From Thermoproteus sp. (lineage in GTDB: Archaea; Thermoproteota; Thermoprotei; Thermoproteales; Thermoproteaceae), in contig JBMFIG010000001.1 of assembly GCA_049976425.1 (NCBI GenBank), positions 160,001 through 224,000 of the forward strand: 64,000 bases of DNA, read 5' to 3'. Within the stretch, counting starts at the first letter, position 1; each line of letters begins with the position of its first letter. A program made the position numbers and the translations under genes. The notes beneath the pieces are model-generated. The model had not been told where the DNA came from. It saw nothing but the letters and a program-made list of their open reading frames with translations, and ran no database searches. This document shows positions 6,244-13,513 of this stretch, piece after piece.

Positions 6244-6963
6244 CTATCTGAACAACAAGCCCAAGGTAGCCGCCATGATTCCCGTGAGGTATATGCCGTC
6301 CCACACGCCGGCCCCTCCAATTGAGGCGAGCGGAGGCATTTGGGCGAGGATCTTCCTAATGTTGTAGACGTCGGCTCCCAGCAGAGTGCCGTAGACGCCT
6401 ATTATGTAGGCCACCGCGGGCGTCAGTCGGCCAGCCCACAGAGAAAACAGAAATGCTATAATCGGCGGCAGGAAACCCGGAGTGACCACCCCCACGCCGG
6501 GCACGACCCTGCTCACGAAATAGACGGCGACAGATGTAGCTAGGGTAGCTAGGGCCGTTCCCAGCATGTACAGCGCAGGCAATTTGGCGAATATATAGGT
6601 CGATAGAATTAGCGGTATTAGGGCGCCGCCTATATTCACGGCGAGTCTGGCTATCTGTTCCTGCACGGCTATTTGGGGCACAGGTATAGGTATGCCGAAG
6701 ACGTACATAACACCGAATGCGGGATAGTAGACCCTCCTCCTAGCTGTATATATCACTACGTGGAAGGGGCTCAGCAGAAGGCTGAGGAACGTGGAGGCCG
6801 CGGCCACCGCCACCGACTCTGCGAGGCCGACCCCTATAGTACGTAGCACTGTCGCCAGCCCGGCTAGATACGAAGGCATCAATAACAACGCGAGGACGGC
6901 GTATATAGCGCCGACTATGCCAGTAAAGGGCGGCGAGAAGACGACGCGTCCGCCGCCCCTTAT
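6244..6963 (-). CDS. DUF1614-like membrane protein
   Basis: AVNIGGALIP, GTLLGAD and SIGGAGVWDGI motifs; start uncertain (ATA at 6963 proposed, see findings). Confidence 0.75.
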   Translation of the reverse strand: MRGGGRVVFSPPFTGIVGAIYAVLALLLMPSYLAGLATVLRTIGVGLAESVAVAAASTFLSLLLSPFHVVIYTARRRVYYPAFGVMYVFGIPIPVPQIAVQEQIARLAVNIGGALIPLILSTYIFAKLPALYMLGTALATLATSVAVYFVSRVVPGVGVVTPGFLPPIIAFLFSLWAGRLTPAVAYIIGVYGTLLGADVYNIRKILAQMPPLASIGGAGVWDGIYLTGIMAATLGLLFR

Positions 6964-7862
6964 GTTCTTTGCCGAATGTACTTCGAATAGGCCGCCTCCG
7001 CGATATCCGCGGCTAGCGCCGTTATTAACATGGCCTCGTGCATTATCGGCGCGACGCCCTCGCACGTTGAGAGCGCCAGGAGTCTTTTAAAAACTGACTC
7101 CCTCTCCAGTATAGTCTTCAGAGCCCCTTCATGCCGGTTTTCCAAGAACGACTTGGCGGCCTCCTCGGCGTATTTCTGCAGAGTCTCGAACTCGTTGACG
7201 AGCTCCTTGTGGCAACCGACCTTGTTATGCCTCAGATAGTTGGTGGCCCGATCAAGGGCGTCGCCCATGTGCTCCAAGTTCTTGACGACTATGACGTAGT
7301 CGACAAAGCCCTGCGGGTTCTGGTATATGTTCTTCTTTATGATCCTCAGAGACAGGAAATAGAGGCGGTCCAGCTGGTCGTCCATGCGTAGTAGCTCCTT
7401 CGCGTCTTCCTCGTTATGTCCCTTGATGAAGTCGAGGAATAGATGGAACATGGCCATGACGGTCGTGTACATGCTCCTGACCACCTCGTCTACATTTACA
7501 TCCTCCTTGGTCACTATCCTCAGCTTAAGCTTGCCCTCGGACTCCAACGCCACGACGCCGGGCAGTCTGCCCTCGACCCTACCCACTAGGGCTGATATGT
7601 TGCCGGACTCGATATCGATCTCGTCTACGCCTTCGATATAATATGCAATGACGTCCCTCAACGCCTTTTCCGGATCCTCTTCCTTTAGCGTGGCTGTGAC
7701 GGCTACGCCCTCGGCTGTCGCGGGAAGTATCAGGATCTTATTGGCCTCCGTAAGTATTTTGATGGGAGAACCCACCCTCAATTGATTAGACTCGACCCAT
7801 TCCCTCGGAAGAGTTATCCCATACGACCTCTCACCTATCCTTATCAACTTTCTAATCTCCAT
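6960..7862 (-). CDS. phoU: Phosphate uptake regulator PhoU with N-terminal AbrB-like domain
   Basis: RKLIRIGERSYGITLPREW AbrB domain; DDQLDRLYF and LEHMGD PhoU motifs. Confidence 0.85.
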   Translation of the reverse strand: MEIRKLIRIGERSYGITLPREWVESNQLRVGSPIKILTEANKILILPATAEGVAVTATLKEEDPEKALRDVIAYYIEGVDEIDIESGNISALVGRVEGRLPGVVALESEGKLKLRIVTKEDVNVDEVVRSMYTTVMAMFHLFLDFIKGHNEEDAKELLRMDDQLDRLYFLSLRIIKKNIYQNPQGFVDYVIVVKNLEHMGDALDRATNYLRHNKVGCHKELVNEFETLQKYAEEAAKSFLENRHEGALKTILERESVFKRLLALSTCEGVAPIMHEAMLITALAADIAEAAYSKYIRQRT

Positions 7863-7989: not shown

Positions 7990-8664
7990 ATGGCAATGTT
8001 CCACATCCAGAGGAGCATACCCTTCCCGCCTATCCGGCTCGACAGACTCGTTAAGTACCTACAAGCAGTGGTCCAGCGCGGCTCCATCTCTCTTGAAGAG
8101 TTAAAGAAGGAGGGGTTGGACTTCGGCAAGGGGAGAGGCGACATAACGCGGTTTCTCGAGAGGTTGGGGCTGGTCACCGTCTCCGGCAAGAACGTCGCGC
8201 CGACAAAGTTAGCCTACGAAGTGCTCTCGATATACCGCTCCATAGGCCCCGCGGTCTTCCACCCGCTCTTCAACTCTGCGCTTCCGCAGTACAGGCTCTT
8301 CGCCGAGCTGATCGAGAGCATGCGCACAGCGACGCCTGAGGAGCTCCACGGCGCCTTGAATAAGAGGCTGTCAGAGATCACCCCGTCGGGCTGGATCAAC
8401 AACGTGGCCTTTAAGTCGCTCCTAGCCATCGCAGTAGATATAGGCGTCGTCAAGAAGGAGGGCAGATACGTAGTTTATATGGGAGACCCAGTCGCGCGGG
8501 CCTTCGCCAGCAACGGCCCGGTCATAGGAGGCGCCGCCTATGTGGAAGACGTGCCCGAGTGGCTGAGGGAGTGCTCCAAACAGCAGAGGCCTCTAGGCAT
8601 AGCACAACTAGATCCTGAATGCGCCTCGCGTGTTCTGGAGAGGCACATCTCTAGTTTGAAATAA
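7990..8664 (+). CDS. Hypothetical protein, probable tandem winged-helix DNA-binding protein
   Basis: Two helix-wing-like segments (ITRFLERLGLVTVSGKNVAPT; LLAIAVDIGVVKKEGRYVVY). Confidence 0.6.
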   Translation: MAMFHIQRSIPFPPIRLDRLVKYLQAVVQRGSISLEELKKEGLDFGKGRGDITRFLERLGLVTVSGKNVAPTKLAYEVLSIYRSIGPAVFHPLFNSALPQYRLFAELIESMRTATPEELHGALNKRLSEITPSGWINNVAFKSLLAIAVDIGVVKKEGRYVVYMGDPVARAFASNGPVIGGAAYVEDVPEWLRECSKQQRPLGIAQLDPECASRVLERHISSLK

Positions 8665-8683
8665 ATAGGACGAGTCTATCTTT

Positions 8684-8983
8684 ATGGCTAAGCGGCGGCA
8701 ACAAAGCGAAAAAAGGGGAGGTAGCCTCCTCGATTTCCTAGGAGGCGGCGAATCTGCCGAGAGGCGTGAGGCGCCGGCCCAGCCAGAAGGCGTCGACAAC
8801 GACGTGTACAGCTATATAGCCAGCAGAGGGATAGTGCCTAAGGAGGAGCTGTTCGAGTGGGGGAAGGCCAGGGGATACACGACGGCAGATATCATGAGGG
8901 CCGTGGATAGGCTGACTAGATCGGGGAAGATAAGGCGCCGTCTAGACGACGAGGGGAGGCTCGTCTATTCTACGTCCCAATAG
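8684..8983 (+). CDS. Small winged-helix protein with N-terminal PIP-box-like motif
   Basis: Low-complexity N-terminus containing SLLDFL; C-terminal wH-like segment IMRAVDRLTRSGKIRRRLDDEGRLVY. Confidence 0.6.
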   Translation: MAKRRQQSEKRGGSLLDFLGGGESAERREAPAQPEGVDNDVYSYIASRGIVPKEELFEWGKARGYTTADIMRAVDRLTRSGKIRRRLDDEGRLVYSTSQ

Positions 8984-9015
8984 AAAACTATATATTTAGA
9001 TATTGAGGCTCTGTC

Positions 9016-9324
9016 GTGGAAGTCTGCGAGATACTGGGGAGATACCTTGCTAAGCTGGTGGAGGGGGCCAAGGGCAACGTAGTCAGCTTCACCGTGGGTG
9101 ACGTCTCGCGGTGGTCCGAGGAGAAGTTCAGAACCACGCGGTCCGTCACCTTGAGGGCCGCAGCTATATGCGAGGCGTTGCTGGCTCAAGGGCTTCTGGA
9201 GAAGATCGGCAAGAAGTATATCTTACGGCGCGGCTCGCCGTTGTGGGAAGCCGCCGCTAGGAACGACATCGAGAGCATATGCGATATAGTTAGACGTACT
9301 ATTATTGTGGCCGAAAGAACTTAA
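9016..9324 (+). CDS. Small putative DNA-binding (winged-helix-like) protein
   Basis: 102 aa; ICEALLAQGLLEKIGKKYIL helix-wing pattern; own TATA-like element upstream. Confidence 0.55.
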   Translation: MEVCEILGRYLAKLVEGAKGNVVSFTVGDVSRWSEEKFRTTRSVTLRAAAICEALLAQGLLEKIGKKYILRRGSPLWEAAARNDIESICDIVRRTIIVAERT

Positions 9325-9347
9325 TTAATCCCTCCTTTTAGTACCAC

Positions 9348-9578
9348 GTGAGGCAACACGTAGGCATACTGCTGACGGCAATCGCGGTACTAATACTTTT
9401 AGTTTTGCATACATTAATATATAATATTATTGCACTTATAGTCTATATTATTGGTATTATAATTATATTAATACCGCAAAAAGAGCGACGTGTTGAGGAG
9501 AGGCCTTTAGCCGTTCCTCAGCCTAGGCCCACGCCTGAGGAGCTCAAGAAAAGGCCTACACAACCTCCCGAGCTGTAA
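9348..9578 (+). CDS. Small membrane protein (2 TM plus Pro-rich charged tail)
   Basis: Long hydrophobic N-terminal half, tail PQPRPTPEELKKRPTQPPEL; TAATG coupling to the next gene. Confidence 0.65.
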   Translation: MRQHVGILLTAIAVLILLVLHTLIYNIIALIVYIIGIIIILIPQKERRVEERPLAVPQPRPTPEELKKRPTQPPEL

Positions 9579-10342
9579 TGAAGACGCTGGCGTTTATATC
9601 AGGCCTTAAAGGCGGCACCGGCAAGACTACCCTCGCGGTCAACACAGCCGTCGTGCTCGCGTATGCGCTGAGGAACAAGGCGAAGTATCCTGTGTTGTTG
9701 ATAGACGCGACGCCGGGGATCGGCACGGCCGCGATGCTGTTGGCCGGCTCGTATAGCCTACAGAATCTGATTAGCCTCTCGGAATATTTCGAGGGGCGGA
9801 TATCGAACCCCCTCCAAGCGTTCTATTTGAGGAGGTGGCAGGTCCAACAAGGCGAGTTTAACGTCGTTTTTTCATTCTTCAACAAGCCCGTCGCGGTCTC
9901 TAGGAGGTTGCTTGAGGCGTTGGTGAAACAGGTAGGGGATATGCTCGGCCCGCTGGTAGCCATATTCGACTCGCCGCCCGCCGGCTACGATTGGAGCATC
10001 GCCGGCCTTCTAGACTTTGTGGTTCCCGTGGTTACTCCGGACATGTCCTCTATAATCTCGACGGCCGGGATCTCGAAGATCGTTGGCGGGAGGATGTTGA
10101 GGCCGATCATAAATATGTATGTAAAAGAGCACGACGTGGCCGGCGTGTACGGGCGGAATTGGCCGGATATCGTGAGGGAGATGTTCGGAGAGGAGCCGCA
10201 TATAATACCTTCAGATCCCCTCTTCGAGGCCTCCAGACAAGCGTTGGAGATAGAGTCGCTCAAGTTAAGGCCCGAGGAGTCGCAGGGCCTGACGGCTCTG
10301 CTGTCCTATATCCGCTACCTCGTCTCGCAACTCTCTATCTGA
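9578..10342 (+). CDS. MinD/ParA-family ATPase
   Basis: Deviant Walker A KGGTGKTT, VLLID, FDSPP, IINM. Confidence 0.85.
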   Translation: MKTLAFISGLKGGTGKTTLAVNTAVVLAYALRNKAKYPVLLIDATPGIGTAAMLLAGSYSLQNLISLSEYFEGRISNPLQAFYLRRWQVQQGEFNVVFSFFNKPVAVSRRLLEALVKQVGDMLGPLVAIFDSPPAGYDWSIAGLLDFVVPVVTPDMSSIISTAGISKIVGGRMLRPIINMYVKEHDVAGVYGRNWPDIVREMFGEEPHIIPSDPLFEASRQALEIESLKLRPEESQGLTALLSYIRYLVSQLSI

Positions 10343-11067
10343 TGTGTAATCACGCCGATCATTTTGAGGTCGCGGACTATATAGGCGCGGCACGGCACTG
10401 CCTCGTGGTACTCTCTCTTTACGTAGCGGCCCTCTCTATCCACCAGGATCGACCCGTAGTCTGCCATTAACGCACCTACAAAGTCCTCGTAGAAGTCGTC
10501 GCCTACGTGGACATACACGTCGGGTATTATGTCGCCCACAAGCACCGTCAGCGCCATCTCGAATATGCGCGGGCTCGGCTTGACCGACCCCACATCGTCG
10601 GCATATATCTGGACGTCTAACAGCCCCGCTATGTCGAGCTTGGAGAGGAGCTCTCTGGTGGCTCTGGACCTCCAGAGAAGGATGTTGGATATGACGCCTA
10701 CCTTATATCCATCGTCCCTCACAGCCCTCAGCGCCTCCACCGCATCCTGGAACGGCTTCACGTCAAGGCTACTGACAGCCTCGTCTATCTCGTTCTGGAC
10801 CTCGTAAACGTCGAAGTCCGCGGCGATGCCGCGCTCCTTCAACTTCCTCTTGATCCTGTAGAGGTTGTAGGTGGGAGGGATAAACTCCTGTCTCTCCCTA
10901 CGGGCGAGCTTCAAAGCACGCCGCTCATCCTGCACGAAGGAGTAGATCGAGCTCCACTGGACCCTGCCGCCCAACGCCTTTGTCAACACGTCGGCGACAA
11001 CCTTTATAGCAGGCTCTACGGGCAGTATCGTGCCCCATACGTCGAAGGTAATAGCCTTGACGCTCAT
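10315..11067 (-). CDS. HAD-superfamily hydrolase
   Basis: FDVWGT, ISN, KPSPRIF and HVGDD motifs. Confidence 0.85.
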   Translation of the reverse strand: MSVKAITFDVWGTILPVEPAIKVVADVLTKALGGRVQWSSIYSFVQDERRALKLARRERQEFIPPTYNLYRIKRKLKERGIAADFDVYEVQNEIDEAVSSLDVKPFQDAVEALRAVRDDGYKVGVISNILLWRSRATRELLSKLDIAGLLDVQIYADDVGSVKPSPRIFEMALTVLVGDIIPDVYVHVGDDFYEDFVGALMADYGSILVDREGRYVKREYHEAVPCRAYIVRDLKMIGVITHQIESCETR

Positions 11068-13513
11068 ATCAGTACTCTCCCTACTCACTATTAATATTTA
11101 CGCAGAGCTCCAGCTCCCTTTGCCCACAGAGCCGCAACCCAACTTTACCATAACGCCGGCCTTGGTTAACATGAACACTTATACAAATCTTACAATAATA
11201 TTTAAAAATCAAATAAATATAAATAATACTAAAATTAATATATCTAATGCATTAATAATTTTTGAAAAAGTATATAAAAATATAGTAAATATAGGAATCT
11301 ATCCAACCGGAGACAATGTGGTTGTATCAATAAATGGTACTGAAAAAATATTAGATGTAGCAAATATTTGTAATATAAATTATATTAACTCATATAATTA
11401 TAGTCAATCTATATTTATAAATGTTTCATCAACTTGTTCTAATCTCAACGAGTACATTAACGGTATGCGTGTCCCAATAAATTCGGTTTATCGCCCTCCT
11501 TATTCGGGTATCTACTATGTTATATTAACAAATGGATCCTATTATGTTAATATAACATATATTGTATCTCCAAAAATCTCGACAAATATAACATATTACG
11601 GGCAGTGGCTTAACATATCCCTAAATCCGCCGCTCTACGGATCCGCCGTGGCGTCCATAGGCGGCTTCAACATCTCAACTACGTCTATGATATCGATACC
11701 GCCGTTTGCTCTGGCCGCTGGTAATTATACACTTACCTTAAGCCAAAACGGAGTACTGCTGTTAAACACAACAATAGAGATCCTTAAAGCGATACCTAAA
11801 ATAACTATAAAAATAAATAATACTGTTATATATGGAATTACTACTAAATATAGTATAAATTCATATATATTTAATAATTATTATAGATGTAATGTTAGTA
11901 TATTCATTAACGGATCCCTCGTAGCGTCTGGCACGACCCCGATGTCTCTAGATCTGCCTCTTCTGGACGTGGGCACGTACAACTTGACCGTCATAGCTCA
12001 TGCCAGCGCCAATACGACCCAGTCAAGTGCTGTTAGGCTGTTCAGAGTATTGCCGGCACCCGTAAACCTCAGAGTGTATGTGAACGGCTCGCCGCTAGGT
12101 CAAGTAGTGCTGGCCTCATACGGCCAGATCCTTCTCTTCAACGCCACGGCAAGCTCCACGTTGCAACCTACTGGCAGAATCGTCATATTGGTTGATGGAA
12201 AAAGCTTCGGTGCTGTCGTCGACACGTTGATGCTGGGGGCCGGTCTACATAACGTCACGGTGGCTTTCTTGCCGTCTAGCGCCAACTTCAGAGAGGCTAA
12301 GGCGAGCGCAACGATAGCAGTGGCGAAATCAATGCCGGAGCTCGTGGTTCCGAAACGCATATCGGCGACATACGGCGAGATGCCCAACGTCACGTTGGGC
12401 CTATACGTCTACGGTAGACCTATCTCGGGTCTTCTAAACGTCACGGTGGGCAACTACACGAGGCTCGTGCGCGTCTTCGGCAATACGACTTTACGACTTC
12501 CTCTGTTGCCTGCAGGTTCGTATGTCGTATATGTTTCATTCCCGGGCAATGAGGATCTATACCCGACAAGTGCATCGTTTTTGTTGCTAATAAAGAGCGC
12601 AACCGTCGTCTTGTCCATAGAGGCGCCTCAAAGGGCTGTCTACGGCGCGTCTGTGCCGATATCGGTGTCGGCGGCCCCGCAGGTGCCTGGGCAGATCTCT
12701 ATCTACGTAAACGGCACGTTGATCTACAGCGGCCCGAGCCCCCGCGTACAGACCACGTGGCGCCCGCCTAGGAGCGGCGTCTTTAACGTAACGGCTTATT
12801 TCCAGAGCGCCTCCAAGAACTACTCCAATACGGCATCCGCGATAATAATATATGTAGAGAAAGCGAAATGTACTATAAATATATTAATAAATTCATCCAC
12901 CTTATATGTTTTAAGAAAATATGAAATCTTAATAAATTCATCGGTGATACCGGAGATATATCTAGATGGGGAGTATCTAGGTACCGCGCAAGTCCTGCCT
13001 CTATCTTTCAACTCCACTGGCGTACACACGATATTTGCCATATTCAAGGGCGATGTTCGGTACTCCCAGTGCAACTCCTCGTTGACAGTCGACGTAATGA
13101 AGAACCCAGCATATGTAGCGATCGAGATACCGCGGAAGCTCGCTGTCCCTAACTCTCCTATAGATATATACATACATATTCTCACTAAATCATATATAAT
13201 TAATGGTATAATTTATATATATATCACTAGTATAAATAAAGGAAATAACTATACTTTAACTAAATACGTAAACAGCTCGCAGGAGGTGCTCAAGGTATCT
13301 TTGCCGGCTCCCGGCTCATACGAGGTCGAGGTGTACTACAGCGGCAATCCCTATGTTGCTGGAAACTACTCCAACGTCGTCGCGGTGACCGTCGTGGAGA
13401 GCCTCTTCGGCGTTCCCCTAATGATGGTTCTGGGATATGGCGTAGCCGCGGTATCGGCCTACGTTGCTGTGTTGGCGATAAAGTTAAAGAGGAGGAAATA
13501 CGGCACTTCATGA
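11030..13513 (+). CDS. Large surface glycoprotein with Ig-like repeats
   Basis: N-terminal signal-like segment, repeated beta-rich units (GxYxxxxxFxGxxxY), many N-x-S/T sequons, C-terminal TM plus basic tail. Confidence 0.75.
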   Translation: MPHTSKVIALTLISVLSLLTINIYAELQLPLPTEPQPNFTITPALVNMNTYTNLTIIFKNQININNTKINISNALIIFEKVYKNIVNIGIYPTGDNVVVSINGTEKILDVANICNINYINSYNYSQSIFINVSSTCSNLNEYINGMRVPINSVYRPPYSGIYYVILTNGSYYVNITYIVSPKISTNITYYGQWLNISLNPPLYGSAVASIGGFNISTTSMISIPPFALAAGNYTLTLSQNGVLLLNTTIEILKAIPKITIKINNTVIYGITTKYSINSYIFNNYYRCNVSIFINGSLVASGTTPMSLDLPLLDVGTYNLTVIAHASANTTQSSAVRLFRVLPAPVNLRVYVNGSPLGQVVLASYGQILLFNATASSTLQPTGRIVILVDGKSFGAVVDTLMLGAGLHNVTVAFLPSSANFREAKASATIAVAKSMPELVVPKRISATYGEMPNVTLGLYVYGRPISGLLNVTVGNYTRLVRVFGNTTLRLPLLPAGSYVVYVSFPGNEDLYPTSASFLLLIKSATVVLSIEAPQRAVYGASVPISVSAAPQVPGQISIYVNGTLIYSGPSPRVQTTWRPPRSGVFNVTAYFQSASKNYSNTASAIIIYVEKAKCTINILINSSTLYVLRKYEILINSSVIPEIYLDGEYLGTAQVLPLSFNSTGVHTIFAIFKGDVRYSQCNSSLTVDVMKNPAYVAIEIPRKLAVPNSPIDIYIHILTKSYIINGIIYIYITSINKGNNYTLTKYVNSSQEVLKVSLPAPGSYEVEVYYSGNPYVAGNYSNVVAVTVVESLFGVPLMMVLGYGVAAVSAYVAVLAIKLKRRKYGTS

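Follow-up and report, generated by a model that had tools for sequence, protein, structure and literature searches.

The closest described systems to the locus analysed here are MinD with MinE, SegAB of the Sulfolobales and ParAB, the CpaE/TadZ proteins of bacterial Tad pili, and the FleN/FlhG-type ATPases of archaeal pili (arCOG00589 and arCOG05608). CpaE/TadZ are described in PMC13170226 as ParA/MinD-type ATPases at the membrane around the pilus motor, and FleN-type pilus ATPases, according to PMC4858521, are often encoded away from pili together with unrelated membrane proteins. MinD of H. volcanii places the archaellum and not division, and intracellular positioning in the Thermoproteales is an open question (PMC7617429). 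Our subject is a 64,000-nt window of a Thermoproteus sp. genome (contig JBMFIG010000001.1, positions 160,001 to 224,000) and in it a block of five co-oriented genes at 7996-10342, the last two of which encode a small membrane protein (gene 4, arCOG07482, 9348..9578, plus strand) and a MinD-like ATPase (gene 5, arCOG05644, 9578..10342, plus strand). The first-pass annotation, made from the sequence alone, had read all five as one module for chromosome segregation or division; our analysis makes it very probable that we are dealing not with five genes, but with a tethered pair.

The conserved pair of a membrane protein and an ATPase

The distribution of the genes was scored in 62 genomes of the order Thermoproteales, which represent nine genera. 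A true orthologue of gene 5 (E <= 2e-26) is present in single copy in 53 of them (one frameshift-split, two clipped by contig ends), and gene 4 lies directly upstream in all 53, overlapping gene 5 in 34 genomes, at most 4 nt from it in 6 and 55-115 nt away in 13. In the window the junction is a TAATG overlap at 9576-9580. The nine genomes of genera g4 and g7, two of them at least 93% complete, gave weak P-loop matches to gene 5 or none. We consider it well supported that genes 4 and 5 are an order-wide conserved unit in which a membrane protein and an ATPase act as a pair, as the first-pass annotation had supposed for these two. In PMC4858521, the orthologous pair arCOG05644 and arCOG07482 appears in Table S4 solely as neighbours of TadC, the former labelled Soj/ParA (category D) and the latter uncharacterised with two transmembrane segments. 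A literature search, with subscription papers and most supplements outside it, found no paper describing the pair, and neither did a search by the identifiers arCOG05644, arCOG07482, arCOG5644 and PAE1613; Makarova and Koonin may have remarked on the pair in arCOG terms.

The five-gene arrangement is far more restricted. The five co-oriented genes, KGGTGKT in gene 5, SLLDFL in gene 2 and the TAATG coupling are all present as first noted, and all five open reading frames have orthologues in other genomes and are therefore genes. The co-conservation expected of a module nevertheless fails: the block is intact in 9/9 Thermoproteus genomes (one with a 316-nt gap) and in 0/18 Pyrobaculum genomes, all 18 of which carry genes 1-2 as a pair at a separate place and genes 3-4-5 as a triple. 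Even gene 1 and gene 2 lie far from each other in four complete genomes from other genera. The ranges are also unequal, gene 1 occurring in nine genera, the gene 4-5 pair in seven and gene 3 in two, while gene 2 reaches the Thermofilales side. What the window shows is the joining, peculiar to Thermoproteus, of genes 1-2 with genes 3-5, each of these units having its own inheritance; given the synteny outside Thermoproteus and a TATA box before gene 3, the block is therefore a genus-level juxtaposition. The absence of a recognisable ParB or SegB partner was borne out, as none of the five gene products matched such a family in Pfam or NCBIfam; genes 1-4 gave nothing above cut-off in these databases, and tblastn against plasmids gave no matches.

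Gene 4 encodes 76 aa and is a membrane protein, as first noted, though with two helices and not one: hydropathy shows two hydrophobic helices followed by a polar tail in 31/31 rows. The protein is predicted to tether the ATPase, with a membrane hairpin at about residues 4-43, a linker and a conserved tail, in which the motif P-x-[DE]-[ILV]-[KR]-x-R-x4-P at residues 63-74 occurs in all 31 rows. A complex modelled with two copies each of the ATPase, ATP and the tail reached a score of 0.86, the best of 3 controls reaching 0.01; it was built with its own alignments and ligand, unlike the calibration, in which the mark is reached by 116/157 solved and 2/215 mismatched pairs and which applies here roughly, a point that tells against the tether. 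The runs share at least 98% of contacts, with a predicted local distance difference test (pLDDT) value of at least 67 for the partner. In the model, tail residues 59-76 lie against residues 22-30, 87-91, 184-190, 214-231 and 242-249 of one ATPase subunit, each tail sitting on one subunit and the dimer not being bridged. P63, R69 and P74, invariant in the 31 rows, touch ATPase residues N22, Y29, Q221, A222, E224, L228 and K229, which are conserved in at least 90% of 36 rows. Because invariant tail residues contact the ATPase's own conserved patch, two independent lines agree, and the predicted binding of the tail to the ATPase is supported. The modelled site at 218-231, a family-specific motif of gene 5, aligns with residues 218-229 of E. 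coli MinD, a region near the MinE site, and some memory effect in the model is therefore possible. We know of no solved complex of the pair.

Gene 5 encodes 254 aa, in which K11, K16, D43 and D131 are invariant in 36/36 rows, giving a deviant Walker A motif with the signature Lys and a Walker B motif D-x-P. Pfam CbiA scores above cut-off, which places the protein in the MinD/ParA (SIMIBI) superfamily. Among PDB matches MinD ranks first, followed by FleN (E 2e-7) and Soj. The cycling of ParA/MinD proteins requires a catalytic Asp in switch I, the role of D40 in E. coli MinD. In gene 5 the switch-I D-x-D is missing in 36/36 rows, the second Asp being G, T, S or N, and the best PDB match is Aquifex MinD mutated at this Asp, ahead of the wild type. 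From the motifs we infer that the protein binds ATP; it probably dimerises, and its hydrolysis is probably slow or nil because the water-activating Asp is gone. A C-terminal membrane-targeting helix is absent, as the family stops at the last core helix and E. coli MinD is about 20 residues longer, and so is an N-terminal receiver domain, the ATPase starting at residue 1. The curated MinD models TIGR01968 and TIGR01969 gave 13.5 and 18.3 bits, against cut-offs >200. A search of 1.8 billion representatives with the gene 5 profile returned 9 matches below 1e-30 and then a gap; many distant matches are proteins of about 400 aa with an N-terminal extension, some of which score as receiver domains. 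Elsewhere in the window's genome, a shortened 180-aa MinD-like ATPase with Arg in place of the signature Lys (G000:C13:29892-30434, minus strand) adjoins a phosphohydrolase, as arCOG00589 does in other places.

Relatives of the ATPase and its possible clients

Trees were built from 28 rows (mixture model) and from 35 rows (Mrp included), the SegA rows being assigned from their size and range and from a SegB-like gene downstream of them, so the SegA and SegB names are presumptive. The gene 5 family groups with archaeal MinD-like ATPases of the class, with support 99/97 in the smaller tree and 81/89 in the larger one; in the mixture-model tree the nearest group has support 89/85. Approximately unbiased (AU) tests rejected the grouping of the family with SegA (p 0.0018), ParA/SegA (p 0.0013), MinD (p 6e-5) and CpaE-like ATPases (p 2e-4). 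D-x-D occurs in 0/24 other rows of the clade (one unreadable), against 12/15 MinD/CpaE-like and 14/14 ParA/SegA rows. A row labelled arCOG00589 falls in the clade of gene 5, likewise without D-x-D. Identity with arCOG05608 was considered and rejected, as its members are 232-261-aa proteins at other places; they branch apart from the gene 5 family in a 71-row quick-mode tree with three mis-trimmed rows.

Each of the described systems resembles the pair in some respects and departs from it in others. With MinD (of E. coli and H. volcanii), gene 5 shares the top structural matches and the position of the modelled tail site, but it lacks a membrane helix and the catalytic Asp, its partner is an integral membrane protein, and there is no FtsZ or MinC client. 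CpaE/TadZ would be comparable as ATPases at the membrane, but gene 5 has neither a receiver domain nor an amphipathic helix and lies outside tad loci, and most CpaE-like rows retain D-x-D. SegAB and ParAB share the deviant Walker A motif with its signature Lys, whereas SegA/ParA rows form a clade of their own (97/93, mixture-model tree) and the constant neighbour of gene 5 is a membrane protein (53/53), a winged-helix (wH) gene standing beside the pair in 27/53. FleN/FlhG-type ATPases have the MinD fold in common with gene 5, which differs in belonging to a distinct arCOG, in its dedicated two-helix partner and in never standing beside a pilus ATPase.

The relatives of the family are often linked to pili. 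Among 20 weaker gene 5 matches that were fetched, 19 were MinD-like and one was ParA; in 11 of the 19 MinD-like loci, of whose neighbours 33/55 long and 5 short ones were scanned, a pilus or secretion ATPase lies within about 5 kb (10 by Pfam T2SSE, one by BLAST). In genera g4 and g7, which are without the pair, the sister ATPase stands in a locus with a pilus/secretion ATPase. An orphan TadC adjoins 15/40 family loci (4/4 in genus g8 and 11/12 in Vulcanisaeta), convergently in 13 and in tandem in 2, and this adjacency, kept in two orientations, counts in favour of a pilus client. The window's genome encodes 6 T2SSE-type ATPases, elsewhere than the pair locus.

The explanation that we favour overall, with a probability of roughly 0.48, is that gene 5 is a slowly hydrolysing MinD-like membrane landmark tethered by gene 4, most likely for pilus machines. 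The translationally coupled hairpin protein would grip the ATPase through its P-x-E-L-K-x-R-x4-P tail at the predicted interface, and its hairpin would replace the amphipathic helix used by MinD and CpaE. An ATP-bound, slowly cycling dimer of MinD type would then be held at the membrane as a landmark; if hydrolysis is slow or nil, the protein is likelier to be a fixed landmark or scaffold than to oscillate or to pull DNA as a ParA does. The client would be a type IV pilus or secretion machine served in trans, in the manner of FleN/TadZ-type ATPases, a suggestion drawn from the relatives and the neighbouring TadC; a pilus or secretion client, as for CpaE and H. volcanii MinD, is the most likely one, although we put it forward tentatively.

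A number of observations weigh against the landmark as we picture it. In 22/36 gene 5 rows, none of them from Thermoproteus or Pyrobaculum, an Asp stands two places further on, which MAFFT aligned to E. coli MinD D40 and HMMER did not, and hydrolysis may therefore survive outside these two genera. The TadC link is confined to two genera and convergent in 13/15 loci, TadC is unlinked to the pair in Caldivirga, and TadC of the Vulcanisaeta/g8 type has no tblastn match in the window's genome. A secretion ATPase was found near the family loci in 0/43 stretches. Some pilus-linked relatives have HerA-type neighbours and may belong to integrated conjugative elements, and strict retention of one copy throughout seven genera would suit a core process better than an accessory pilus gene. 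Moreover, in Makarova et al. 2016 (PMC4858521), arCOG05644 and arCOG07482 are unmarked as pilus genes, and the pilus ATPases assigned are arCOG05608 and arCOG00589.

Since the family does not group with SegA/ParA and its relatives are often pilus-linked, segregation or division, the first reading of the earlier annotation, becomes the second one. It would take the form of a polarity or division landmark, which we regard as unlikely but deserving attention: the tethered pair would mark the poles or mid-cell and position crenactin/arcadin, or would tie down the chromosome by way of a wH adaptor, which in Thermoproteus and Pyrobaculum would be gene 3. Such a role would suit a pair kept in single copy in 53/62 genomes of an order in which 0/24 genomes searched gave a Soj/SegA-type ATPase match at E up to 1e-12, and it fits the Soj annotation of arCOG05644 and the prediction that gene 3 shares a transcript with the pair in 27/27 loci. 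The invariant tail Arg is also a likeness to the activator peptides of MinE and ParB; the modelled tail, however, binds one subunit without bridging the dimer, the Asp needed for cycling is missing, and the AU tests reject grouping with SegA/ParA and MinD. The pair was moreover not found in the two genera g4 and g7, and 26/53 genomes with the pair have no close gene 3 orthologue. The order is without FtsZ and ESCRT according to PMC7617429 and PMC5840170, which again speaks for a landmark of this kind.

The high rank of FleN among the PDB matches would also agree with a FleN-like switch, with the ATPase at the membrane sequestering or gating a transcription factor, for instance the gene 3 protein or one of its paralogues, and thereby linking gene expression to the state of the envelope. 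A basic wH gene is first in the transcript in two genera and weaker paralogues exist in others, but gene 3 is not beside the pair in 26/53 genomes, and we hold this switch to be improbable. Still less credence is due to a five-gene segregation/division complex that assembles in trans where its genes are scattered: genes 1, 2, 4 and 5 are near-universal in the order (61, 58, 53 and 53 of 62) and adjacent in 9/9 Thermoproteus genomes, yet the ranges of the genes differ, gene 3 has its own promoter, and the other neighbours of genes 1 and 2 suggest other partners. That gene 5 is a metabolic ATPase of Mrp/ApbC or CobQ type is largely refuted, in line with the first-pass annotation, although records carry the names 'CobQ' and 'BcsQ' and the AU test does not reject the family with Mrp (p 0.27, a single long-branched Mrp row). 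The CxxC Fe-S ligand motif is found in 0/36 gene 5 rows while the window's genome has a separate CxxC-bearing Mrp, PDB matches reach 41 bits for MinD against 20 for Mrp, and the 254 aa hold no CobQ glutaminase domain.

The winged-helix genes of the block

All three upstream genes encode wH proteins, as the first-pass annotation had proposed. Gene 3 (9016..9324, plus strand) encodes a small basic protein of 102 aa from a paralogous family, whose AlphaFold2 model is a single wH domain (pLDDT 91) with generic wH structure matches (best Z 7.1) and no Foldseek match at E 0.001. It does not hold as a member of a five-gene module, as strong matches are limited to 27/62 genomes, all Thermoproteus or Pyrobaculum (weak paralogue matches in 4 more), and the gene has its own TATA box. 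A TATA-like promoter with a B recognition element (BRE), GAAAAC TATATATT, lies at 8983..8996 on the plus strand, its box at 8989 being 27 nt 5' of the gene 3 start. Such a box stands at -36..-18 before gene 3 in 25/27 loci, compared with 2/22 for gene 4, 0/27 for gene 5 and 0/9 for gene 2 in Thermoproteus; a strict TATA pattern counted 1/26 for gene 1 and 11/26 for gene 2, a count left unused, as TATAAG/TTTAAG boxes can be seen upstream of some copies of gene 1. Because of the promoter motif, genes 3-5 probably form a separate, leaderless transcript, of which gene 3 would be a later passenger and probably a regulator; its autoregulation would be a guess. Two gene 3 paralogues occur in the window's genome (G000:C2:38889-39254 and G000:C1:231340-231702), the latter amid HerA-like and helicase-like genes in AT-rich DNA.

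Gene 2 (8684..8983, plus strand) encodes 99 aa with a basic N-terminus, an L/I-x-x-F-L motif, a variable linker and a C-terminal wH domain, indicated by alignments and a profile match to the DDRGK1 wH (E 6e-6). It is present in 58/62 genomes of the order and in 14/17 other genomes of the class (11 full length), against 1/251 elsewhere in the phylum, a partial copy. In 7/9 Thermofilales-side genomes holding both, the orthologue lies 35-97 nt 3' of an RPA2-like gene for an oligonucleotide/oligosaccharide-binding (OB) fold; in the remaining two the OB gene is 0.75 kb off on the other strand or unlinked, and two further genomes of this side have gene 2 with no OB match. A profile of the OB protein (6 rows) matches yeast Rfa2 (3e-9) and also Stn1, and the upstream RPA2/Stn1-like gene has no wH of its own (L213-L215, L217-L220). 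The OB gene is present in 18/18 genomes of family f14 and 0/43 Thermoproteales, which fits the loss of OB-fold single-stranded DNA-binding proteins reported for the order in PMC8998557. In Rpa2 an OB domain is followed by a helix, a linker and a wH, the last of which binds primase and PolD (PMC11686378). With its linker and wH coded right behind an RPA2-like OB gene, gene 2 may therefore be a detached RPA32-type wH, differing from Rpa2/RPA32 as a separate polypeptide with its own N-terminal motif. The link to the replisome suspected in the first-pass annotation may hold for gene 2. No sequence match to the RPA wH was found, the best matches being DDRGK1 and Sul7s; the search for a fused OB-gene 2 protein found none (weak evidence), and the literature search described above found no split RPA2 reported in these lineages. 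A split RPA2 whose wH half survived as gene 2 is a plausible idea, though one we would not yet back. The gene 2 motif does not fit the box of PCNA-interacting proteins (PIP box, Q-x-x-L/I-x-x-F-F), whose Gln is found in 0/36 rows; at most it might be a non-canonical PIP. Its LLDFL (window 8726-8743) is reminiscent of how E. coli MinE and the SegB-like genes (L228:1280-1546; L231-L245) begin at the N-terminus, a likeness too short to serve as evidence. In genus g8 (L155-L157), gene 2 abuts an opposite-strand gene for a 361-aa ATPase of SMC_N/AAA_21 type.

Gene 1 (7996..8664, plus strand) has its longest reading frame from 7960 and an alternative start at 7990, and probably starts at 7996 according to orthologue starts, the Atlas record beginning at residue 3. 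Its AlphaFold2 model (pLDDT 93) comprises two wH domains and a small C-terminal domain in a BrxA/SspB-like overall layout. The likeness extends over the whole length, with BrxA 7zge (VIA) at Z 10.3, root-mean-square deviation (rmsd) 3.3 and 166 aligned residues and SspB 6juf (VIA) at Z 8.2, rmsd 4.2 and 179 aligned residues; single wH domains match equally well (Z 10.5), Foldseek gave no match at E 0.001, and the ESM Atlas search gave clusters that were for the most part unnamed, along with leads to wH and FokI domains. Gene 1 occurs in 61/62 genomes of the order and, in a separate comparison, in 43/43 order genomes against 0/43 other class genomes; no relatives outside the order were found, and it is a single-copy marker of the order. 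In 2/2 g4 genomes it precedes a gene for a 1245-aa AAA+ protein, a likeness to BrxA-BrxC (PMC12839542). Gene 1, however, matches none of the BREX models of PADLOC or NCBIfam in sequence and is a single-copy core gene, not one in a defence island; BrxB, BrxC, PglX and PglZ were not found among its neighbours scanned, just the AAA+ gene in g4. The AAA+ protein has a 946-aa orthologue in the window's genome, with no PDB or NCBIfam match, and matches in 58/62 order genomes (37/37 of high quality). The orthologue carries a C-terminal wH and shares an operon with a 166-aa protein and a NurA-like gene (G000:C13:31172-35284, L210). A domesticated BrxA/BrxC-like pair of gene 1 and this AAA+ protein is a lead only. 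We view genes 1 and 2 as separate core DNA-transaction proteins.

The block is flanked by a divergent gene for a PhoU/AbrB-type regulator (6960-7862, minus strand), found in all six Thermoproteus stretches compared. Downstream lies the gene for an 827-aa Ig-like repeat protein with hydrophobic segments at its N- and C-terminus, possibly an adhesin or surface protein (11030-13513, plus strand); it keeps its place two genes 3' of gene 5 in each of the 15 Thermoproteus/Pyrobaculum loci fetched.

Meaning for the Thermoproteales

Taken further than we would wager, the Thermoproteales might have combined a pilus-type MinD with an integral membrane tether, in exchange for its membrane helix, into a fixed polarity landmark, which would place division or a crenactin/arcadin scaffold without FtsZ, ESCRT or SegA; the order might separately have lost RPA while the wH that did its recruiting lived on as a free adaptor (gene 2), and have kept a BrxA-like protein and a BrxC-like AAA+ protein as core chromosome genes. 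We consider this picture as a whole doubtful. The analysis offers testable identities for two order-wide hypothetical proteins, one a possible orphan RPA32-type wH where RPA itself has been lost, the other a core protein resembling BrxA. Above all, it delivers a two-protein unit with a predicted interface that is addressable by point mutations, tail P63/R69/P74 against ATPase 218-231, and which would give MinD-type ATPases an alternative to the amphipathic helix for reaching the membrane.

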